A DNA stretch of 64,000 bases, from the IMG/VR virus record IMGVR_UViG_3300045988_074170. One strand, written 5' to 3'. The notes under the pieces were generated by a model. The model did no database searches. It was not told where the DNA came from and saw only the letters and a list, made by a program, of their open reading frames with translations. A program made the position numbers and the translations under genes. This document shows positions 2,311 through 60,657 of the stretch, in pieces. Each line of letters opens with the position of its first letter. Positions within the stretch are counted from its first letter, which is position 1. This DNA comes from a virus.

Positions 2311-2923
2311 TCTTGAGAGCCTCCTTTAAGTCAGGTTTCAATGTCGCACGAATATTCTCGATAGTGTCACACAGGTTCGACGCAGGTTTCTTAGCATCGT
2401 CGTTCTTTTCATCCCAATCAGAAGTAATGATATCCATATAGATAAGATACGCTTCGGGGAACTCTTCCTGAAGTCTGGTGGGAGTGAACCGTGTCATCTT
2501 CATGAGACACTTCAGACGCTTCTCCATGTGATAGCGGTCTCTCTCAACAATGAGATATTCCTTTACCAAAGAAGCGATACTGTCATTATCCTTGAGTTTA
2601 CCGATGTATGATTTAACATTTTCGTATTCATAAGGTATATCACAGGAAAATTTCAGGCGAATGTAGATAGTACGGCTTCCCCAATCTTCCGGGAACCATC
2701 CCTTCGGCAAGTTATAGGAGGAGAGCGTCGCTTCGTTACAGCGAAGGAAGAACTCCTCATGTGCTTTGAAACAAGCCAGAACGTCCTCAGGCGTCTTTTC
2801 GATAAACCGTTTCTCGATAGCTTCATTGAGCTTTTCCCGGAGAGCGTCGAGCTTCTCTTTGTAGTTCAAATTTGCCAGCCGTGTGGCAATCGTCAATCTG
2901 GTGTCTTCTACAATTACTGCCAT
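2291..2923 (-). CDS. hypothetical protein (210 aa)
   Basis: ORF in the minus-strand array. No recognisable motif. Confidence 0.6.
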   Translation of the reverse strand: MAVIVEDTRLTIATRLANLNYKEKLDALREKLNEAIEKRFIEKTPEDVLACFKAHEEFFLRCNEATLSSYNLPKGWFPEDWGSRTIYIRLKFSCDIPYEYENVKSYIGKLKDNDSIASLVKEYLIVERDRYHMEKRLKCLMKMTRFTPTRLQEEFPEAYLIYMDIITSDWDEKNDDAKKPASNLCDTIENIRATLKPDLKEALKNAKEEE

Positions 2924-2929
2924 GTCGTT

Positions 2930-3688
2930 CTACTTTTTAGGGTTCATATTCAAAATTTTTGCTTTCGGTTGAGGAGCCTGTTCTGGCTCGTGAGGGACTT
3001 CCCACAGCATAGGCACGTATGTGAACTGCTCCTGTGGTTCAGGGTTCGCTTCCATAAGGAATACCACTTTGTCGGTTGCTTCGCTCTCTGTAAGGTTCTG
3101 TAAGGGATTATCGTCCTTATCCTTTACAACTTCACCATCCGACAGGCGAATGACCTTAAATAGAGGCTCAGGGAGTTCCATGTTGGTGAACTCTGTGACG
3201 TCGAGATAATCACACCCGAAGTTCTCAGCCGTCTTGAGGTCGCTGTCGCTGAACTGTCCTTCCAGACCAGAGGCATCCCCTATCATTAGACAGTCTTCTT
3301 TGGAGATTGTGATACCTGTATTGTGAGTGAACTCAGCCAGCATGTCCTCAAGCATTCCCGGATTGGGTTTACGTTTCGGATGCTTCTTGTCATTGTAGGG
3401 ACAGAACTGTCCGGCAACAAGCGTATTCAAACCGATGTACGATTGAAGGCACGCAATGACGTAGATGAATTTCGGTTGGAACATAGCGGGATGAACGCGT
3501 CCCAGTTCAATTCCACCCTGATTAGATACGATGAGAACAGCCTGTGGATGAAGTTTCTTGAGTTGCGCAAAAACCTCCATTTTCAGTTTCATGTCCCAGA
3601 CTCCTTCCGGGAACGTTTTGCCGGATTCGGTATCGATGAGCGTACCGTCCATGTCGATGAAGATGACTTTCTTCTTTGTAATGTCCAT
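2930..3688 (-). CDS. HAD-IIIA polynucleotide 3'-phosphatase-like protein (PNKP phosphatase domain) with a C-terminal extension
   Basis: Motifs FIDMDGTLIDT (DxDxT), VSNQGGI, KPNPGML and IGDASGLEGQFSDSDLKTAENFG match the DNA/RNA 3'-phosphatase branch of the HAD family. Confidence 0.7.
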   Translation of the reverse strand: MDITKKKVIFIDMDGTLIDTESGKTFPEGVWDMKLKMEVFAQLKKLHPQAVLIVSNQGGIELGRVHPAMFQPKFIYVIACLQSYIGLNTLVAGQFCPYNDKKHPKRKPNPGMLEDMLAEFTHNTGITISKEDCLMIGDASGLEGQFSDSDLKTAENFGCDYLDVTEFTNMELPEPLFKVIRLSDGEVVKDKDDNPLQNLTESEATDKVVFLMEANPEPQEQFTYVPMLWEVPHEPEQAPQPKAKILNMNPKK

Positions 3689-10778: not shown

Positions 10779-11096
10779 TTATTTTGAAATGTACATACTA
10801 TTCAGCGGAGACTCTATCATGCGATACAGTACGAGCGTCCCTGTCTCAACGCATTTAATCATGATATCCCACACGAAACGAGGCTGTCCAAGTATAGGAG
10901 GATATTCATTAGCGATTATCTCGTAATGATTTTCGCTCCCTACAAACCATTCACCTCTTTCAGTGAGGTCAATAATTGTTTGCATTTGCATTTGCGCTTT
11001 TCTCAGCGAAGTAATTGAAAACGCCACGTCAGCGATACCCCAAACCCCATTTATTTGTTGGGCGGTGATGATGTTGTAAACTGATTTCTGTCCCAT
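10779..11096 (-). CDS. hypothetical protein (105 aa; start trimmed)
   Basis: The ORF-track start at 11150 lies inside the promoter module. The next ATG, at 11096 (MGQKSVYN), is downstream of the -7 box. Confidence 0.5.
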   Translation of the reverse strand: MGQKSVYNIITAQQINGVWGIADVAFSITSLRKAQMQMQTIIDLTERGEWFVGSENHYEIIANEYPPILGQPRFVWDIMIKCVETGTLVLYRMIESPLNSMYISK

Positions 11097-26003: not shown

Positions 26004-27623
26004 CTACTTTTTATTTGGTTCATCATTTGCGGACATAGCACAAGACGTATTCAGGAACTGAATAGCGACTGAAACAGAGTTTTCCAGGGACACTCTTGAC
26101 ACTTTCGCAGGGTCAATGATTCCTGCCTCAAACATATCTTCTATCTTCTCAGTAACAGGGTTGAAGCCTTTCCACCACATCGGGTCGTCGTTGTTTGTCA
26201 AGTCGACTTCGATACGGGTTGCGTTCACAGAAGCATTTTCACACAACTGATTGAACGGAGCCATCAACGCTTGAGCCACTACATTCCAACCGATAATGAA
26301 GTCAGGATGCTCCTCGTGAAGTGAAGGCATATTGCGTAGGTGGTCTGACGCTCTCAACTGTACCGTACCACCTCCGGGAACGTATCCCTCTTCCAACGCT
26401 GCCCGAGTTGCGGCAATAGCGTCGTCAACACGGTCTTTTCGCTCCTTCATCTCTACCTCACTGTCCGCACCTACATAAACGACGGCTGCTCCTCCTGTAA
26501 GTTTCGAAATACGTTCACGATACTTCTCTTGGTCGTAAGAGTTCGTATTCTCCTCCATTAGATGTTTAATAGCCTCTACTCTGGTATTTATATCGGCTTC
26601 CGTACCAACACCTCCTACGAGGATTGTACGATTAGTAGAAACGACTGTGCGTTCACACTCGCCCAGCCAGTCTGTACCGAGTTGGTCAAGCGGACGTCCA
26701 AACTCATCGCCTACCACCTTTGCACCTACCTTAACAGACAAGTCCTCTATCATGTCCTTCTGGATTTGACCATATCCGGGAGCCTTTACGAAACAGGCTT
26801 TTAACCCGTTCTGCTGCTGAATGTTTGTCACAAGAAACTTGATAACGTCATTAGACGCATTAGGAGCAACGATAAGAACGCTGCGTTTCGCTGAATAAAC
26901 TGTCTGAATGATAGGAAGGATTTCCTGGGGATAGTTGATGTTCTGTCCGAAGATGAGAATGTACGGCTTATCAAGCACGCATTCTATACGCTCTGGGTCT
27001 GTAACGAAATACGGGTTCACCAAGCCTTTCTCCCACTGAAAACCTGTGGTCACTTCAACTGTGGTTTCATTTCCCTTGCTGCTTTCCTCAACTGTAATCA
27101 CTCCGTCGTTTCCTACCTTTCCGATAGCCTCCGAAATGATACAACCAACCTCCAAATCACCGTTTGCGCTGATAGTGGCAATCTGATTTACACGGTCGAA
27201 CTCTGTCTCACCAATTTCCTTCGCCATCGCTTTGATGAACGAAACGGCTTCTGAACGAGCAGCCTCCATTCCTTCCTTGAAACGCTGTGGATTCTTGACA
27301 TTAGGAAGAACATTCATTCCCTCTTTAATGAGCGCACGGGTGAGGATTGTGGCTGTGGTTGTACCGTCACCAGCCTCGTCACAGGTCTTTGCCGCAACAG
27401 TCTTAACGAGCGTTGCTCCCATACGTTTCATCGGGTCGTCGGTATCGTACGCACGGGCAACAGTTACACCATCTTTCGTGATGTGAGGAATGCCATACCC
27501 TTTGTCAATGATTACTGAATGTCCCTTCGGACCGAGAGTAGAAGATACTGCATTAGCGAGTTCATCAATTCCTTCGAAAAGAGCCTCTTGAGCAGATTTG
27601 TTGAATAAAATCTTTACATTCAT
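26004..27623 (-). CDS. groEL: GroEL-type (group I) chaperonin
   Basis: Motifs are AAKTCDEAGDGTTTATILTRAL (ATP site) and GGAAVVYVGADSEVEMKERKDRVDDAIAATRAALEEGYVPGGG. There is no GGM tail. Confidence 0.9.
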   Translation of the reverse strand: MNVKILFNKSAQEALFEGIDELANAVSSTLGPKGHSVIIDKGYGIPHITKDGVTVARAYDTDDPMKRMGATLVKTVAAKTCDEAGDGTTTATILTRALIKEGMNVLPNVKNPQRFKEGMEAARSEAVSFIKAMAKEIGETEFDRVNQIATISANGDLEVGCIISEAIGKVGNDGVITVEESSKGNETTVEVTTGFQWEKGLVNPYFVTDPERIECVLDKPYILIFGQNINYPQEILPIIQTVYSAKRSVLIVAPNASNDVIKFLVTNIQQQNGLKACFVKAPGYGQIQKDMIEDLSVKVGAKVVGDEFGRPLDQLGTDWLGECERTVVSTNRTILVGGVGTEADINTRVEAIKHLMEENTNSYDQEKYRERISKLTGGAAVVYVGADSEVEMKERKDRVDDAIAATRAALEEGYVPGGGTVQLRASDHLRNMPSLHEEHPDFIIGWNVVAQALMAPFNQLCENASVNATRIEVDLTNNDDPMWWKGFNPVTEKIEDMFEAGIIDPAKVSRVSLENSVSVAIQFLNTSCAMSANDEPNKK

Positions 27624-31474: not shown

Positions 31475-33979
31475 TTAACAATATATTAAACTCTTTCTCG
31501 CACGTGTTATAGCCACGAATTGGAGACACTTTTCAGCATATAAAGCCAGTTCAGTTGTCGCATACTTACTTGGTAGGAGTTCCGGCTGAAGAAAGAATAT
31601 TCTGTCTGCTTCCAACCCCTTACTTTTGTGAATGGTCGACAGCGTGATACCACGACTGGCGTTCTCTACAAATATATCGTAAATCCGGGAGCGCACGGTT
31701 TCCAAATCACCGAAATATTCGTACAGGCTCAACAAAACATTCACTTTCTCATTCAACTTGTCGTATGCCTCACACTTGGTTGGACTCTTAACTCCCTTCT
31801 TCTGCAACTTACTTATCATGTTCTCAAGAACCTGTTCAAGCCCCCATACGTCCTCGACGCTGTCTATGAGCGATACAAGTTCATCACCGAATTCCTTCCC
31901 AAGAATTGTGCACTTCTTCCCCTGCCGTAACAGGGTGATGAAAGCGTCAACCAACGGAGCGTTATTCCGGCACAGAATGAAATCCCCTTCCTGAGCGTCC
32001 TTAAATGTACCGTCCCCAACGAACCCTTTAACCGCTCCAGGAGCAGCCACTATACCATCGGGGAACACTTTACAGGCTTCGGCAACTATATCCTGGGCAC
32101 AACGATATGTCATTGACAGAGGCAACGTCACTGTATTAGGAGCATTCTTGATAGCCTGTAACGAGTCAAGATTACTCCCCATGAATGAATAGATTGACTG
32201 CTTTTCATCCCCTACTGCTATCAGGCGACCTCGTGGCGTCTTGCACATCTTCACGACCTCGAACTGTAATGGGCTGATATCCTGACACTCGTCAAGCATA
32301 ACGACATTGTACTGTTTGAAGTCTTCCCGATGAACGTATTGAGTCGCATAATATAACATATCGGTAAAGTCCATAGGGAGTTTCCCTCCCCCACCTTTTA
32401 GGAAGTAATTATCGGCAATCCTTTTGTTAAGCATACGGAGCTCTATTGCTCTCTTAGCGAGTTCTTCGTCAGCGTCCTCACCGTACCTCTCCCCCAATGC
32501 TATTATTGCCTCTATATCGTCTGGTACGAGGTTAAATCTCATGAGGTCATAGAGCCTACATACTTTCATTATTATTCCGGGAATGCGCTTCGGGTGAACC
32601 CCTTTGAATTCCATCTTCTCTTTCGCCAGATTGAAATTCTTTGAATCACTCAGGCTGAAATTCAGGCTGAATGCTTTGCACAGGGACGACAGCGCACAGG
32701 AGTGAAGTGTCTGAGCCTTTACAGTTCTTGGAAGCCTCTGCCCAAGTTCTTCAGCTATTGACTTATTGAAAGCCAAGAAGATTGAACTCTTTATAGGAGG
32801 AGTCATCTCCGCTAACTTGCACAGGGTGAATGTCTTCCCAGAATTATGAGTAATAGTAAAATCCCCTAATAGATATCTATTATCCCCATCAACAGTAAAA
32901 CCAAACCACGCACCCTTTCCAATAGGTTTTAAAGAAAATCCAGTGTGAAGCACATCTTTTATTTGTTTTCTCTTACTTGCCTTTTTTCGTGAAAGAATGT
33001 TAGGAATAATCTCTGTATGACCCGAAATCCCTATTCTAAAATAATATGCTTCAAAATTTCTTGATTTAATTGTTGAACGTTTCCATTTATAAGACGGATA
33101 TAACCCTAATGAACGAACTAAGTAAACAATTCCCTCTCCCAAGGACTCCCATTTCGTTGAAATTGAAAAACAACATCCATCACTTTTCTTATATCCATCG
33201 CCATCAATAAGTCCAGCAAGAAGTCTTAATCTGTTCTCCACTGAATTAATCAGATAATTTTGAGGAATGAAAACATTTCCCAATTCATCAATGCATTTCT
33301 TAAATTCCTCCCTAAAAATATTTTTAGAACCGCACCCCACAAATCTTACCTGAACACAATTTTCACTATCATCTTTTATTTTGCATTCAATTCCTTTTGG
33401 AAGAGGATAAGATAAAAGATAATCAATAATATCTGAATCCTGTTTACATATACTAAAATATGGATTTCCTTTGTGCTTCGTTCCTTCTGCAAGCCATAAC
33501 CCTAACAAATAAGGGTCAATAGGGATGGTTTCCTCCTTAAATTCGACACCTGTTCTGACAAGTTTTAAATGACCAATTTCGCCATTATTTTTCTGAAATT
33601 TTAAAATTTCTTTAATATGTTTGTCAACTATATCAGAAGTCTTTGCCGAATTATATAGCCTCATTGAACGAGTAATATATTGGTCATGAACAGTAAAAAT
33701 ATGCTCATCATTACATATCCATTTTTCACCCTTTTTCGGAGAAACTTCATACAAATTAGAAATTCCGCTATCAATTTTCAAAACATTTCTTGGGCAAGAA
33801 TCTGGTCCCATTAATACGTCTCCAACGCAAATTTCTTGAGACAATTTTGTTGAACCATCAAACATTAAAACCTTGACATCTTTTCCAAGACATCCAGCCG
33901 TTGCGCTGACGAAAATGTTCCTGTTCGTACTTTGGTATTCGTCAACTATCGCCTGTTTATATTCGTCCAATTTCGCCAT
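31475..33979 (-). CDS. UvrD/PcrA-family (SF1) helicase interrupted by an intein in the Walker A motif
   Basis: The exteins join as SATAG + SGKTFTL. Other motifs are VVMLDECQDISPLQ, TIHKSKGLEADRIF and VAITRARKSL. Confidence 0.85.
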   Translation of the reverse strand: MAKLDEYKQAIVDEYQSTNRNIFVSATAGCLGKDVKVLMFDGSTKLSQEICVGDVLMGPDSCPRNVLKIDSGISNLYEVSPKKGEKWICNDEHIFTVHDQYITRSMRLYNSAKTSDIVDKHIKEILKFQKNNGEIGHLKLVRTGVEFKEETIPIDPYLLGLWLAEGTKHKGNPYFSICKQDSDIIDYLLSYPLPKGIECKIKDDSENCVQVRFVGCGSKNIFREEFKKCIDELGNVFIPQNYLINSVENRLRLLAGLIDGDGYKKSDGCCFSISTKWESLGEGIVYLVRSLGLYPSYKWKRSTIKSRNFEAYYFRIGISGHTEIIPNILSRKKASKRKQIKDVLHTGFSLKPIGKGAWFGFTVDGDNRYLLGDFTITHNSGKTFTLCKLAEMTPPIKSSIFLAFNKSIAEELGQRLPRTVKAQTLHSCALSSLCKAFSLNFSLSDSKNFNLAKEKMEFKGVHPKRIPGIIMKVCRLYDLMRFNLVPDDIEAIIALGERYGEDADEELAKRAIELRMLNKRIADNYFLKGGGGKLPMDFTDMLYYATQYVHREDFKQYNVVMLDECQDISPLQFEVVKMCKTPRGRLIAVGDEKQSIYSFMGSNLDSLQAIKNAPNTVTLPLSMTYRCAQDIVAEACKVFPDGIVAAPGAVKGFVGDGTFKDAQEGDFILCRNNAPLVDAFITLLRQGKKCTILGKEFGDELVSLIDSVEDVWGLEQVLENMISKLQKKGVKSPTKCEAYDKLNEKVNVLLSLYEYFGDLETVRSRIYDIFVENASRGITLSTIHKSKGLEADRIFFLQPELLPSKYATTELALYAEKCLQFVAITRARKSLIYC
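32843..33892 (-). mobile_element. intein (350 aa) with a LAGLIDADG homing endonuclease domain
   Basis: The intein starts CLGKDVKVLMFDG (Cys codon 33892..33890) and ends FTITHN (Asn codon 32845..32843). The +1 residue is Ser. The LAGLIDADG blocks are LLGLWLAEGT and LLAGLIDGDGY. Confidence 0.85.
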
Positions 33980-54717: not shown

Positions 54718-55752
54718 TTAATCGATTAATAATTCTCCTGGCTTGGGCAACTTAGCATTCCACTTCGGGGGGAATACGAACTCAATCTTCTTCGGACTCT
54801 TTTCGTAGGTGTGCTTGATACGTTCATTTCTACCTTTGTTGAAAGACGCTCCTAATCCCTTTGCAAACTTCGATGTTTCACAGAAACAGTTCTGAAGATT
54901 TGTAAGAGTAGGAACAGGCTCCCACGGTAACGGGTTCCACTTCATACCTGTCTTTTCGCAGAAGTCACCCATCAGCCTTTCAAAGTTGTCGTGAACCCAC
55001 TTGATAGTGCCCACATAGTCATAACGCTTTCCGGACGCTCCGTCAAATGTCCAACCGATACCTTTCAGCGACCCTGGACCAGTGATGACAAAATCGTTTT
55101 CCGAAAAGTTAAACAGGGGTGAATAATTCAGGTCAATGCAATATTGCTGAGCCGTGAAGTCCCCGTAGATTTTCATATTCCTGAAAACCCAATACAAGTC
55201 CTCAAAGGTCTTCGCCTCTAAGAAGTCATACAAGTGTCCGTTCTGAAAGATTTCATCTTCGAAGATACGAAAGTGGGCACGATGCTTGCTCATCCCTGTA
55301 ATATGTTTATATTCGGGATATTGATAGAAGAAGCAGTTCACGATGTAGGCATTACCATATATCGTGTCTCCGCCATCAACAACCTTGTCAAGAAACTTCG
55401 CTATGTTTTCCAAGCCTGTTTCGTAGGTGATGTCCCCGAACTCCTTTTCCAACAAATCCCACGTTTCGTTCTTATTGAAATGCTTGAAAAGCAATATGCG
55501 AAAGAACATATCCTCTGGTTCATACTGTTTGCCATTGTAAATTACACGGCTCAACAGGTATTGGCTGACCCTATCCAAGCATCTATAAACATTGGTGAAC
55601 TTGAATCCCCGAAGTATTTCATCGTCTGTCCATGGTCCAACCTGTCCATTGTACTTTTTCCAGAAAATGTTTTGTCTTTCGCATATCCAATACAAAAACC
55701 AATTAAATGTTTCTAATGGAACTGGCTTAAACGATTTTATATCTTTTCCCAT
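54718..55752 (-). CDS. aGPT-Pplase-like protein (alpha-glutamyl/putrescinyl-thymine pyrophosphorylase family candidate)
   Basis: The N-terminal segment ERQNIFWKKYNGQVGPWTDDEILRGFKFTNVYRCLDRVSQYL matches my recollection of the PWT-D-x-IL...F-x-NV-[YF]-R-x-x-DR signature. This is not verified by a search. Confidence 0.5.
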   Translation of the reverse strand: MGKDIKSFKPVPLETFNWFLYWICERQNIFWKKYNGQVGPWTDDEILRGFKFTNVYRCLDRVSQYLLSRVIYNGKQYEPEDMFFRILLFKHFNKNETWDLLEKEFGDITYETGLENIAKFLDKVVDGGDTIYGNAYIVNCFFYQYPEYKHITGMSKHRAHFRIFEDEIFQNGHLYDFLEAKTFEDLYWVFRNMKIYGDFTAQQYCIDLNYSPLFNFSENDFVITGPGSLKGIGWTFDGASGKRYDYVGTIKWVHDNFERLMGDFCEKTGMKWNPLPWEPVPTLTNLQNCFCETSKFAKGLGASFNKGRNERIKHTYEKSPKKIEFVFPPKWNAKLPKPGELLID

Positions 55753-56521
55753 TCGTTAATTCTCTTGATTTTATAAATTTACATAAAGATTTCCGGCACA
55801 CCCCTAAAGATTCTTTAGCAATTCCAATTGAATCAAAAGTCCTCAAAATTTCCCCTGAGTCAGAAATTTCAATCACTCTTTTAGAACGTTCCCGTTTAAA
55901 ATCTTCAGAATGATGCTTACCATAAAAAGGATTCTTTTCTCCTAATTTTGATTTAGAAAGATTTAACTTGTGAGTTTCAGAAAATTTCCTTCCCTTCCTT
56001 GCTAAAGACATTTTCAAACGAACCTCTACAGAGGCTTTCTTTCCTAAATGTGCTTTAGAAATACGCTTTCGACCCTCTTCGGTTAAATAACACTTTCCTC
56101 TTCTACTTTCCGCAGATTTTCTTATTGATTCTTTTGATGGATGATAACCCTTTCGAGCTAAAGACATATTTCTACGACCTTCTTCTGAAACTTTCCAAGA
56201 CGCACCCAATGTGCCTTCACCACCATCCGTCGTATTGTACCCGTTGCGTCGGGTGTCGTACTTCTGAATGAAGTGTCTCTCAAGGAAGTCAAGCTTCGCT
56301 TTAAGAGCCTGTAAAGAGGAAGCCTCAACCGATATGACTTCCTCTATTGTGAAGTTCTTGGAACCGTACTTTCGAATCGCTCTATGAAACTTGAGAGCGG
56401 AACCGTTGTTAGCGGAAACAACATGCTGGCGCCACCGTGCCTCAATCGACCTAACAGTTTGCCCAAAATACGGCTTTCCATTCTTTAGGCAAGTGACGCA
56501 ATATATTATCCCGCGCTCCAT
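55727..56521 (-). mobile_element. free-standing GIY-YIG homing endonuclease (copy B)
   Basis: MERGIIYCVTCLKNGKPYFGQT, FHRAIRKYG and YNTTDGGEG, followed by repeated basic NUMOD-like modules. Confidence 0.8.
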
Positions 56522-57258
56522 TATTTACCTTTCTCAAACGTTTCAAAAGAGTTTCTTTCAATGTAGTCCGACGCTTCACAGAAAGCCACGAACTCTTCAC
56601 ATAGTTCTGACAGCCCAAAGAAATTGAAAATATGAACACCCAAGTCCCAGACCGGAGCGTCATACGGTTGGTCGTGAAGAACCACACAACCGCCAGCCTC
56701 ATTCACCTCTTCTCCCTCTCTTTGAGCCTTTTCGAAGTCGTGCATAAAGGTTCTGTGCTTTCGCCACATGCAATCTCCCTTAGGAGACTCGCCAGACCTG
56801 TATGCTATCCGAGCACAATACTCATCCCATTGGTCGTCACGGTAATCATACCTGACATGGAGAATGTTCGTAAACTCACTCTCTCCGCATAAATCCAAGG
56901 GACGCAATCGCCATGATACAGTTGTTCCTGCACCATCAATCAAAACTCCATGCCCTGCCTTAGACGTTTCCTTCAAGAAGTAGGATAGACCCTCAGCCTT
57001 GCACAGTCGCGACGTCATACTGTCGTAACCTTGCCAGCGTCGGATACCGCCATTCTCATAGAATTTCCCAACGAAAACCATATTGAAGTCCTCGGAGTAA
57101 ACCCCGACTTCCTTTTCCTTTCCGTCAAGTGTCTTAAACTTGTATGGGCGGAGTTTCATACCTAATGATTCGAAGAACTCGAGGAAGAGGTAAACCCTTG
57201 TAGATTTACCGCTCCCCGAGATGCCTTTAACCAATACTATGGATTCCCCGTCAACCAT
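56521..57258 (-). CDS. P-loop kinase (candidate 5-hydroxymethyl-dU DNA kinase, by context)
   Basis: Walker A is VKGISGSGKST. The only element separating it from the aGPT-Pplase-like gene is a homing endonuclease. Confidence 0.45.
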   Translation of the reverse strand: MVDGESIVLVKGISGSGKSTRVYLFLEFFESLGMKLRPYKFKTLDGKEKEVGVYSEDFNMVFVGKFYENGGIRRWQGYDSMTSRLCKAEGLSYFLKETSKAGHGVLIDGAGTTVSWRLRPLDLCGESEFTNILHVRYDYRDDQWDEYCARIAYRSGESPKGDCMWRKHRTFMHDFEKAQREGEEVNEAGGCVVLHDQPYDAPVWDLGVHIFNFFGLSELCEEFVAFCEASDYIERNSFETFEKGK

Positions 57259-58096: not shown

Positions 58097-58297
58097 TTAT
58101 TTTTTGCCGGAATGACCAAATCCACCCGCACCTCTCTCAGTGTCAGTGAGTTCTTCGACTGAAGAAACTTCGACAACTTCCTCGACTTTTGCATACGGAG
58201 CAAAGACGATTTGGGCAATTCTGTCACCATTCTCGATTGTTTGTGGTTCTGTCGACAGGTTAATCAACGGAACACCTACTTCCCCACGATAATCCAT
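58097..58297 (-). CDS. dut: dUTPase C-terminal part (exon 2 or separate C-fragment)
   Basis: (M)[14 protein letters not shown]...GDRIAQIVF...[11 protein letters not shown] carries dUTPase motifs 3 (second half), 4 and 5. Confidence 0.8.
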
Positions 58298-58385
58298 TTA
58301 ATTTTGGAGATTGTTAATCTAACAGGCTCTTTATCCTGCTATTTCTTTGCTTTATTTTGTTATATGCAAAGTTCAGACTATATCT

Positions 58386-59084
58386 TCACTTTCTTTTGAA
58401 AGGCAGGACACTCGTGTCAGCATTACTGTCCTCAACCTTACTTGTTTGGACTCGGCTGTTAGTCGTTGAACCTTCAAGAACATTACTGTTCATGCTTGGC
58501 TGCTGATTGCCCACTTCTGGGTTTTCCAGCAATTCACCCTGTTTTAAGACGCCAATTATTCTGCCTGTTTTATTGTCTCTAATAATTGTCTTTTCAAAAT
58601 TATGAATTGTCGTATGCTCTCCGCGAGTTAAAACTTCAAGATTTTCTAATCGATTGTCAGTCTTATCTTCATTTATATGATGAACATCGTAACAATCTTT
58701 CAAAACTATCCAGCCACATATATTTTCAAACAGTTCTTTAGAAAACTTGTCATAGTTTCTTTCAATGATTAATCTGTGTTTCAATATATAAGTTGCCTTC
58801 CCTCTATCTCGAATTTTACCACCTTTAGGATGTCCAGGAACATTTTCCATTATATAACCTGCTGAATTTATCTTTTCATCATGCTTATAGGAACTATTCA
58901 ACTCCCCTGTCAATCCAAACTGATGGTTCCCCTCACCCGTCATATATCTTGAACGTAAAATCTTTCCACATTCTTTTGAGCATGAAACTCCATGAATTTG
59001 ACGTTTAAGTCTTGACGGCTTTACCCACATTTTAACTCCACAAATTGAACATTGACAATTTGGTTCTCTATCAAATTTTCCCAT
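58386..59084 (-). mobile_element. HNH homing endonuclease inserted within the dUTPase gene
   Basis: HHINEDKTDNRLENLEVLTRGEHTTIH is preceded by an N-terminal Cys-rich region (CQCSICG...CSKECG). The ATG is at 59084; the ORF-track start at 59147 is a TTG. Confidence 0.8.
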
Positions 59085-59143
59085 ACCATTTATATTTATC
59101 GGCACAAAGTTAGTCAACTTTAATAAAGAACCATAGACTCTTA

Positions 59144-59416
59144 TCAAGCAGTCATTAAAAGTCCAGCGTCTATCGTTCCGGGAGCATTGATTACGGTCAG
59201 ACCCTGTTTAACAGCGCAACCGCTGCGAGGTCTAACCTGACCCTCGTACCCCTGTTCGATTTCCATGTACAAACCAGTAGGAATGATTTTACGCTCCATA
59301 GGAGCCAACGTGATTGAACCCTCGGGAAGATAAGCACGCAAGTCCATACCCGAACTGTCTGGAGTTTTGTACTCCGGCAGAGCATTTGTGCTCTTGTTTA
59401 CGATTTTTAATTTCAT
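59144..59416 (-). CDS. dut: dUTPase N-terminal part (exon 1 or separate N-fragment)
   Basis: SSGMDLRAY, RPRSGCAVKQGLTV and NAPGTIDA carry motifs 1, 2 and the first half of motif 3. This is followed by a non-conserved GLLMTA-stop. Confidence 0.8.
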   Translation of the reverse strand: MKLKIVNKSTNALPEYKTPDSSGMDLRAYLPEGSITLAPMERKIIPTGLYMEIEQGYEGQVRPRSGCAVKQGLTVINAPGTIDAGLLMTA

Positions 59417-59440
59417 ACTGTAAATGATTAAAATGAAATG

Positions 59441-59932
59441 TTACAACCAATCAAAATTGTTTATAATTGTGATGTCATTATATTTAACGAGAAAATCACC
59501 TTTCGAGCCTCGAATTTTGACTTCCTCCTTAGCAGGATTGTTGCTTACGACCTCCATTATCGTCCCTTTGTACAGGACTTTGGTATCCCTGTAAAGGATG
59601 TACCAACGGTCATAATTTCCCTGAACTCTTCTCTGTTCTTCGTCTTTGTACTGAAACGCTGGAAGACCTTTCTTTCCCCAGAAATTCTTTTCGACGAACT
59701 CCGCCACATTATATCCAGGAGTGAAAATACTGTCGACGTTGAATTTCACACTCAACTCAATAATCTTCAACCGCTTCTTCTTAGCAATATCCGCTGCGAC
59801 TGACGCATACGTTCCATTACGGTATATAGAGGAACGTAATTTGTGAGTCAGATACTCCAATTGAAGCCGTGTCAAAAACTGTCTGTGGCGCAGTCCTTTG
59901 TCCTCACAGGTTTCTTCTCTTACTTTGTCCAT
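59441..59932 (-). CDS. hypothetical protein (163 aa)
   Basis: ORF in the array. Confidence 0.55.
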   Translation of the reverse strand: MDKVREETCEDKGLRHRQFLTRLQLEYLTHKLRSSIYRNGTYASVAADIAKKKRLKIIELSVKFNVDSIFTPGYNVAEFVEKNFWGKKGLPAFQYKDEEQRRVQGNYDRWYILYRDTKVLYKGTIMEVVSNNPAKEEVKIRGSKGDFLVKYNDITIINNFDWL

Positions 59933-59946
59933 AATTACTCAAATTT

Positions 59947-60657
59947 TTATTTCCATAAATATCCTCGATAAGGCAAACCATCCTCAAGTCTTTTCCTTAA
60001 AGTATGCCCATTCAATTTCAGTTCTCGTTTGATATCAATTATAGTATTCCATTCTTTAATAAATATTCCACCCTTCGAATATTGAAATACTTTTCTACAA
60101 TTATTTTGATACCCAGGTTTTCCCGAATTCGCTTCTGATATTTTTCTTTTTGTTTCTTCTGAATGATGTTTTCCATATAATGGATGATTCTTTCCAGAAA
60201 GTTTATGATTTCCGAAATTCGAATTTAATTCCCCAATTCGTAATTTAGCAGCATCGCTCATTCTTTTCAAAGTCTCATCCGAAAATTTTCTACCTTTCAA
60301 GGCTTTGCTGATTTTAGCAAGTGATTCTTCAGAAAGATTTACTAAACCATCCCCACCATCTGTCGAATTATACCCGTCAATCTTAGTGTTGAACCGCTTT
60401 ATAAGCCTCATTTCAGCGTAGTCAAGTTTCCTCTTGAGAGCATCCTTCGTAGGAGCCTCCACGAACATCACCTCTTCGACCAGGAAGTTCTCCTCACCAT
60501 ACTTTCGTATGGCTCGGTGGAACTTGTGGTCGGAGCCTCGCTGAGAAGAACGAACATGCCGTCTCCAACGACTCCTTATAGAGAGCATCGTTTGCCCGAA
60601 GTACAGTTTCCCAGTGGGCAGACAGGTGACGCAATATATGAAGCCTTTCTGAATCAT
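59947..60657 (-). mobile_element. free-standing GIY-YIG homing endonuclease (copy C)
   Basis: MIQKGFIYCVTCLPTGKLYFGQT, FHRAIRKYGEENF and YNSTDGGDG. It shares a 59-nt identical block with copy A. Confidence 0.8.

Follow-up and report, generated by a model that had tools for sequence, protein, structure and literature searches.

A probable mobile group I intron with an HNH endonuclease gene in the dUTPase gene of an uncultured Bacteroidota gut phage

The DNA analysed here is a stretch of 64,000 nucleotides (nt) from the IMG/VR virus record IMGVR_UViG_3300045988_074170; the whole of this stretch is referred to as the window. The ORF list and the sequence give three consecutive open reading frames (ORFs) in it: the N-terminal half of a dUTPase, an HNH endonuclease, and the C-terminal half of the dUTPase. 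All three are on the minus strand, as are all features below unless (+) is given. The ORF of the N half (59416..59144) ends with ...NAPGTIDA-GLLMTA-stop and that of the C half (58297..58097) starts with M-DYRGEVGV, whereas the HNH ORF extends from the ATG at 59084 to the UGA stop codon at 58388..58386. The two dUTPase exons are separated by 870 nt (59164..58295), of which 80 + 91 = 171 nt are outside the HNH ORF. The insertion point is inside dUTPase motif 3, between the Ala and Asp codons (G-T-I-D-A/D-Y-R-G-E, where the slash marks the insertion). Exon 1 (59165..59416) includes motifs 1 and 2 and the first half of motif 3, and ends with GGA ACG AUA GAC GCU. Exon 2 (58097..58294) starts with GAU UAU CGU GGG and includes the remainder of motif 3 as well as motifs 4 and 5; its stop codon is at 58099..58097. 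Both exons were assigned from the ORF list, Pfam analysis of the joined protein, and the intron-less alleles described below, with which exon 1 is collinear up to 59165. The base at 59165 is T, the final base of GACGCT, and that at 58295 is G, from ATG. When the halves are joined, the 149-residue protein matches the Pfam dUTPase family PF00692 from end to end (E-value of 3e-28; profile positions 4-129 of 129). The predicted spliced junction is CCCGGAACGATAGACGCT joined to GATTATCGTGGGGAAG; an exact search of the IMG/VR DNA with the 21-mer of this junction gave no match. A preliminary description of the locus had placed the HNH ORF, between the two dUTPase halves, and the 870-nt span at these positions, and had recognised motif 3 in the joined halves; all of this was borne out.

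The window contains a single Rfam match, to RF00028, with a score of 64.4 bits at 58606..58357 (gathering score of 50; E-value of 4.9e-14 for the whole window). Most of this match is within the 3' part of the HNH ORF. The preliminary description, which proposed such a covariance-model search for group I elements, had counted about 170 nt outside the ORF and considered this too little for a ribozyme. The count stands at 171 nt, but the objection falls because the ribozyme overlaps the ORF and is not confined to these nucleotides. The ribozyme core (58322..58541) was defined by the RNAalifold consensus and pair counts, with the alignment columns mapped to the window. Its helices are P3 (58541..58535/58410..58404), P4 (58531..58526/58506..58501), P5 (58521..58518/58513..58510), P6 (58500..58498/58472..58470), P6a (58491..58487/58482..58478), P7 (58466..58460/58380..58375), P7.1 (58458..58455/58421..58418), P7.2 (58451..58447/58432..58428), P8 (58402..58399/58392..58389), P9 (58371..58366/58350..58345; 3' strand shifted by one base by eye), and P9.1 (58339..58335/58326..58322). 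All of the core helices are intact in the window. The core, from P3 to P8, overlaps the last ~150-170 nt of the HNH ORF and then runs on to the 3' splice site. There is no P2: the guide sequence and P3 are separated by UUAAAA only. Because the extra helices P7.1 (58458..58418) and P7.2 (58451..58428) are present, the ribozyme is assigned to subgroup IA; eight of the nine pairs in these two helices are changed on both sides. The names P7.1 and P7.2 have also been applied to a group IA intron (PMC2248736).

The internal guide sequence, 5'-AUAAUU/GGCGUC-3' (58548..58559), provides the partners of both exon ends. In P1, GGCGUC (58553..58548) pairs with the end of exon 1, GACGCU (59170..59165), with U59165·G58553 at the splice site. 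In P10, AUAAUU (58559..58554) pairs with the start of exon 2, GAUUAU, forming six pairs in the window. The pair counts are based on an alignment of 24 distinct ORF-deleted constructs, each joining the exon-1 positions -8 to -1 to three bases of the intron, to the sequence that starts 20 nt ahead of P3 and ends at the 3' splice site, and to eight bases of exon 2. From this alignment RNAalifold recovered P1, P3, P4, P5, P6, P6a, P7.1, P7.2, P8, P9, and P9.1; of the 56 pairs, 33 show compensatory changes. P7 and P10 were then entered by hand, giving 67 pairs, of which 36 are changed on both sides, including pairs in P1, P7, and P10. Standard pairs occupy 94.5% of the pair cells; displacing the 3' partners by 1-3 columns lowers this to 32-43%, and lowers the covariation score from 0.428 to 0.099 or less. 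None of 500 shuffles reached the observed values. P7, which has a bulged base, is paired in 100% of the cells, and its pair 118-225 switches between A-U and G-C in perfect step (11 versus 13 sequences). P1 is also paired in 100% of the cells, with three of its six pairs co-varying. The U·G pair at the 5' splice site and the intron-terminal G (omega-G; G58295 in the window) are each found in 24 of 24 sequences. In P10, A or G at the exon-2 position +2 goes with U or C in the guide, so that exon GAU is matched by guide ..AAUU and exon GGU by ..AACU. P10 is paired in only 73% of the cells overall because the introns at a second site use a register shifted by one base.

This second site (site B) is 7 nt upstream of the one used in the window (site A), inside the Ile codon (ACG AU/A GAY GCN), and the guide is retuned to it. 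The carriers of site-B introns are L006, L008, L011, L028, L034, L039, L065, and L071. At site A, exon-1 ends of GACGCU, GACUCU, and GACUAU are accompanied by guides GGCGUC or GGUGUC, GGAGUC, and GUAGUC, respectively. At site B, AACGAU is accompanied by GUCGUU, GACGAU by GUCGUC, CACGAU by GUCGUG, and AACGGU by GCCGUU. In every dUTPase locus the guide hexamer is at a constant distance upstream of P3 and forms six of six pairs with the exon-1 end, and in every one the predicted join restores G-x-(I/V/L)-D-x-(D/G)-Y-R-G-E. A guide that aligns both exon ends at the exact junction in motif 3 is regarded as the signature of a working group I intron.

The boundaries are supported by alleles that lack the insertion. 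A search of IMG/VR with the spliced protein identified eight contigs (L080-L087) with an uninterrupted dUTPase of 95-97% amino-acid identity. Their DNA aligns with the window up to 59164/59165 and resumes at 58294, at the same position of the locus. The uncertainty of one base arises because the intron and exon 2 both begin with G. Presence or absence of the intron is thus exact among phages that are otherwise 90-97% identical, and this collinearity means that closely related phages differ by a clean insertion of the 870 nt. The intron-less alleles have ACC ATT GAC GCT GAC TAT, whereas the window has ACG ATA GAC GCT/GAT TAT. The synonymous differences flank the insertion site at -10, -7, and +3, and T at +3 completes P10. 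The preliminary proposal of a group I intron at 59164..58295, with U at the 5' splice site and a terminal G, is therefore confirmed by RF00028, by the P1 and P10 pairing, and by the intron-less alleles; G59164 is the first intron base and G58295 is the omega-G. Six codons into the intron, the exon-1 frame reaches a UGA stop codon (59144..59146). By analogy with T4 td, this stop would keep ribosomes that translate exon 1 out of the intron body.

The same stop codon and the in-frame ATG exactly at the break had led the preliminary description to a second possibility, a gene in pieces: the N half (stop at 59146..59144) and the C half (ATG at 58297) would be translated separately and assemble without splicing, like NrdA in the Aeromonas phage Aeh1, the gene of which is interrupted by mobE. 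Both codons do exist, and the last three bases of the intron, which are formally a start codon of the C half, are ATG, TTG, or GTG in 17 of 18 site-A introns (ATG in 12 of 18). To dismiss the ATG as a coincidence would therefore be too strong, and this regularity weighs against splicing as well. On the other hand, in the introns located 7 nt upstream the terminal UUG is out of frame with exon 2, and 22 of 24 sequences have a U just before the terminal G. The conserved terminal U-G seems likelier to reflect a constraint at the RNA level than a role as a start codon. Furthermore, the break falls in the middle of motif 3, and ORF-less versions of 251 nt interrupt the gene likewise. In Aeh1, nrdA resembles the window in that an essential gene of nucleotide metabolism is present as two ORFs flanking an HNH-type endonuclease gene. 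Aeh1 nrdA is not known to have intron RNA; the halves are separate polypeptides and mobE is free-standing. In the window, by contrast, the halves flank a splicing element: a complete ribozyme in which P1 and P10 bring the exons into line. The covariation of the guide with the two exon ends is explained only by splicing, so that two polypeptides are not needed. The gene in pieces is accordingly considered highly improbable, and the group I intron is the preferred reading.

The HNH homing endonuclease ORF (58386..59084; 232 residues) is located in L1, the loop of P1, which is 611 nt in the window. The protein matches Pfam HNH_3 (PF13392) with 33.5 bits against a cut-off of 24.8 and has 364 homologues, the close ones of which share the start MGKFDREPNC. 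Its N-terminal part is a Cys-rich repeat region. The beta-beta-alpha metal finger is present with its His/Asn/His residues: His135, His136, Asn148, His157, and His161 are invariant in 45 homologues. In an AlphaFold2 model based on 45 homologues, this region has a predicted local distance difference test (pLDDT) score of more than 90. Residues 1-184 are confident, whereas residues 185-232 have a pLDDT of less than 50 and are predicted to be a disordered tail. The top fold match in the PDB is I-HmuI (1u3e), with a Foldseek probability of 0.98, an E-value of 0.06, and 22% identity over 95 columns. The last ~58 codons, from Ile176 (58559) downward, double as the P10 partner, the guide, J1/3, and the ribozyme core, and the stop codon UGA falls between P8 and the 3' strand of P7.

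The position of the gene in L1 follows from an ORF-less relative. The intron of L036 is only 251 nt; its P1 hairpin, GACGCU joined to AGACUUUAAUUGGUGUC, has an 11-nt loop, and P3 comes directly after it with no P2. The ORF-less intron of L047 is 282 nt with an L1 of 44 nt. Decayed ORF remnants occupy L1 in L064 and L018, and the endonuclease ORF is also degraded in L003. The L036 contig also has a match to the RAGATH-1 hammerhead ribozyme at 10962..11041 (+), with 71.7 bits against a gathering score of 56.3. In the predicted model, the ordered HNH protein thus ends at the border between L1 and P3, and the tail of ~48 residues would be a by-product of the ribozyme sequence. The amino-acid conservation of the tail (KQGELLE..NQQPS..EGSTTNSR) reflects conservation of the RNA. 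A functional C-terminal domain encoded by the ribozyme was also considered and is unsupported: the tail is predicted to be disordered, the stop positions vary, and L012 and L060 have out-of-frame indels. In the dUTPase introns the endonuclease stop codon is +87 to +225 nt past the start of P3; for the lineage as a whole the range is +21 to +231. Three of five length changes in the core are in frame, which is too few for an argument for selection. No directly useful precedent for an ORF in the P1 loop of a group I intron emerged from a search of the literature.

Upstream of the HNH gene, TAACTTTG (59105..59112) matches TAnnTTTG and starts 28 nt upstream of the ATG (59112 to 59084). TAnnTTTG is the -7 promoter consensus of Bacteroidota. 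This pattern is found within the first 110 nt of 8 of 18 distinct dUTPase introns, compared with 0.09 expected per 110 nt. It is possible that TAACTTTG is an internal promoter of the Bacteroidota type for the endonuclease. In addition, the otherwise conserved HNH ORFs of three site-B introns (L006, L011, and L028) are interrupted by in-frame TGA or TAG codons, which points either to recoding of stop codons in these phages or to decay of their endonuclease genes.

The overlap of the endonuclease gene with the core recurs in the lineage. The same ribozyme lineage also interrupts other phage genes, which by eye, from the flanking translations, resemble those of a capsid, a ribonucleotide reductase, a polymerase, a tape measure, and an ATPase. 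The endonuclease gene in L1, its family assigned by Pfam, enters the core in one and the same frame (..K-Q-G-E-L-L-E..) in six or seven independent cases: HNH_3 (both dUTPase sites), GIY-YIG (L004; L029/L069/L074; L062), LAGLIDADG_2 (the L010 group), and a classic HNH (L019). The exceptions are L056 and L059, the ORFs of which stop before the core. Translation in either of the other two frames would soon meet a stop codon (UAA in J1/3; UGA in GGGUGA). The bias has a p value of ~0.02, if the insertions are independent and the frames equally likely. Since three structurally unrelated families, in different host genes and with different guides, share this frame of entry, read-through from the L1 endonuclease gene into the core might be a selected feature and not an accident, although we regard this as unlikely. 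If it were true, ribosomes translating the endonuclease would unfold P3-P8, so that each pre-mRNA would either be spliced, giving dUTPase, or be translated, giving endonuclease. This would be a built-in switch between benefit to the host and spread of the element; alternatively, the tail encoded by the ribozyme would have a function of its own.

The distribution of the intron was examined in IMG/VR and GenBank. An exact 19-mer from P3-P4 retrieved 77 IMG/VR loci, about half of which have the C half of a dUTPase ~240 nt downstream of the pattern. The HNH cluster P0001 is present on 55 contigs, and two loci, L044 and L045, are nearly identical to the window. When the region and 24 kb around it were compared with GenBank phages by megablast, only the ribozyme core matched (crAssphage BK010471 and cr1_1, with 78-83% identity). 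Nucleotide similarity restricted to the core is expected of a horizontally moving element. The more sensitive blastn search gave full-length matches in cr50_1 and CrAssphage LMMB. In blastn comparisons, P3-P6 is also similar to the S-PM2 psbA intron and to introns in phages of Bacillus, Staphylococcus, Campylobacter, and Flavobacterium. The same intron lineage is found in Intestiviridae, in Suoliviridae, in contigs of 345-393 kb (L065 and L071; site B), and in the phage of the window. The two large contigs resemble the gut Bacteroides jumbo phages in size. This distribution points to horizontal spread of one intron lineage between unrelated gut-phage groups via the target in dUTPase motif 3.

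Other mobile genes lie close to the dUTPase region. Just upstream of it is an ORF for a GIY-YIG endonuclease with NUMOD3 (59947..60657; 236 residues). The segment 60697..59956 is reduced to ~40 nt in L080-L083 and L087 and is present in L084-L086. Because it shows this presence/absence polymorphism of its own, the ORF is considered to be a free-standing mobile endonuclease gene. A second GIY-YIG-like ORF (55727..56521; 264 residues) is its paralogue. At 56531..55692, only ~60 nt are found in L080-L084 and L086, and a related GIY-YIG gene is there in L085 and L087. In L083, positions 2463..3253 correspond to 59955..59164 of the window over 792 bp with 97.7% identity, whereas both flanks are only 73-75% identical. 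This patch spans the stretch from the GIY-YIG insertion point to the intron insertion point, and such a mosaic is expected of gene conversion driven by endonucleases.

With regard to the carrier, the window is a module for replication and nucleotide metabolism. Its genes include those for a DnaB-like helicase, an SNF2 helicase, an NAD ligase, a thymidylate synthase, and an intein-containing helicase of the UvrD type. The closest matches of the SNF2 helicase are in phages of the Tenacibaculum (Larrie) or Cellulophaga (phiST) type, with 37-39% amino-acid identity. The label crAss-like, suggested by the first nucleotide matches, was dropped: only the intron matches crAssphage, and the SNF2 helicase is nearest to those of Cellulophaga and Tenacibaculum phages. 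The carrier thus appears from its genes to be a phiST-like phage of Bacteroidota and is not demonstrably crAss-like. In the UvrD/SF1 helicase ORF (31475..33979; 834 residues), Hint and LAGLIDADG domains at residues ~30-331, the intein, precede the helicase domains. The window also encodes a chaperonin of the GroEL/Cpn60 type (26004..27623; 539 residues; Pfam Cpn60_TCP1, E-value of 2e-65).

The closest known system is that of crAssphage. In Carjivirus communis (BK010471), gp34 is annotated as a dUTPase in a two-piece join that "contains intron insertion" and gp35 as a "putative intron-encoded HNH endonuclease". The searchable crAssphage papers name the intron in annotation, without description of the ribozyme, of the position of the ORF in L1, or of the overlap. 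The split of the crAssphage dUTPase, present in only some contigs, has been described (PMC7551546), and high intron loads of crAss-like phages are on record (PMC7886860). The host gene and the insertion site in motif 3 are the same in crAssphage and cr1_1 as in the window, cr1_1 has an equal layout of three ORFs, and homologous introns are also present in cr50_1 and CrAssphage LMMB. The HNH_3 endonucleases of this group are homologous to that of the window, with 38-41% amino-acid identity by tblastn. Their ribozyme cores share 77-83% of nucleotides with that of the window, and the endonuclease ORF enters the core in the same frame. The differences are in the carrier phage and in the guide, which is GGCGUC in the window, GUAGUC in crAssphage, and GGAGUC in cr1_1. 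The window intron is therefore homologous to one already annotated in crAssphage and is ordinary in kind; here it is present in a different phage lineage.

Similar introns are known from other phages. The td, nrdB, and nrdD (sunY) genes of T4, which function in nucleotide metabolism, contain group IA2 introns with homing endonucleases (I-Tev) inserted in conserved catalytic motifs. These introns have an early stop in the exon-1 frame, and their presence varies among close relatives. Their endonuclease genes are of the GIY-YIG or other types and are in the P6 or P9 loops, largely outside the core. The window intron shares with them the IA type with P7.1 and P7.2, the location in a catalytic motif of a nucleotide-metabolism gene, the endonuclease, the early stop, and the variable presence. 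It differs in that its endonuclease gene is of the HNH type, is in L1, and overlaps the guide and P3-P8, and in that it has no P2. The HNH nicking endonucleases I-HmuI, I-HmuII, I-BasI, and I-TwoI of Bacillus and Staphylococcus phages are likewise encoded in group I introns. The similarity to these enzymes is weak, however, and the HNH protein of the window has its Cys-rich repeats in the N-terminal part. No NUMOD or helix-turn-helix module was detected in its C-terminal part.

From these features, the following mechanism is proposed. The transcribed RNA would fold so that GGCGUC pairs with the last six bases of exon 1 to form P1, and AUAAUU with the first six bases of exon 2 to form P10. Free guanosine bound at P7 would start two transesterifications, by which GACGCU would be joined to GAUUAU, and splicing would restore the 149-residue dUTPase with all five motifs. 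The I-HmuI-like HNH endonuclease is presumed to cut or nick the dUTPase alleles of co-infecting phages that lack the intron, after which repair would copy the intron in; the exact presence/absence polymorphism is indirect evidence of such homing. Indirect support for splicing comes from jumbo phages of gut Bacteroides, in which metatranscriptomes confirmed splicing for 37 of the 76 group I introns predicted (PMC12880540).

Besides the start-like triplets mentioned above, several points weigh against a working mobile intron. Splicing of the window RNA is predicted from sequence only. Translation of the endonuclease through P3-P8 should hinder folding of the ribozyme on the same RNA. The match of the HNH model to the I-HmuI fold is weak (E-value of 0.06 over 95 columns), and a sequence search of the PDB with the HNH protein gave no match. 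The first ~40 positions of the Rfam alignment (58606..58567) fit the ORF sequence and not the real P1, and Rfam fails to report homologous introns in crAssphage, in cr1_1, and at four IMG/VR loci. The Rfam placement of P1 and P2 at 58606..58567 was rejected: the 5' splice site and P3 are just 23 nt apart in the ORF-less relatives, and the co-varying guide (58553..58548) falls in an insertion of the Rfam alignment. RF00028 reports none of L001 2900..3260 (crAssphage), L002 2900..3260 (cr1_1), L006, L020, L025, and L064, the first two not even at E-values up to 1, although the missed introns are 77-83% identical to the window core and have all of its helices. Its threshold is reached in 8 of 12 related loci, including the ORF-less L036, and the window and these eight score 54-73 bits.

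The first of these points is also what favours a dead gene, in which the insertion would have inactivated the dUTPase, the intron would no longer splice, and the exons would be decaying remnants; the degraded endonuclease ORFs of some relatives (L064, L003, and L018) are in line with this. The exons, however, are intact and in frame, with all five motifs and 95-97% protein identity to the uninterrupted alleles. Every core helix is intact in the window, and the pairing of P1 and P7 has not been lost. The same intron-bearing allele occurs on many contigs (P0001 on 55; L044 and L045), and compensatory changes throughout the family indicate long-term selection on the RNA. A dead gene therefore has very little probability. 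The anatomy of the locus, the covariation of the ribozyme, the fold of the endonuclease, the exact insertion polymorphism, and the spread among unrelated phage lineages, as established above, lead us to conclude that 59164..58295 is very probably a mobile group I intron of the IA type, with an HNH endonuclease, that interrupts dUTPase in an uncultured Bacteroidota phage from the gut.

The understanding of how group I introns work is unchanged by this case. What is unusual is that the ORF is in L1 and has a long overlap with the ribozyme, that P2 is missing, and that the two retargeted sites are separated by 7 nt. For detection, one general RF00028 model is a leaky tool for this intron lineage, and a search for ribozyme sequence only outside intron ORFs fails here, the core being inside the ORF. 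In annotation of this phage, the two dUTPase ORFs are to be taken as a single spliced gene, and the "hypothetical" or HNH ORF that separates them as an intron-encoded homing endonuclease. The guide, which is retuned to local codon usage and to a site 7 nt away, provides a clean natural data set for intron retargeting. As for the phage itself, its dUTPase should not be counted as broken or absent.

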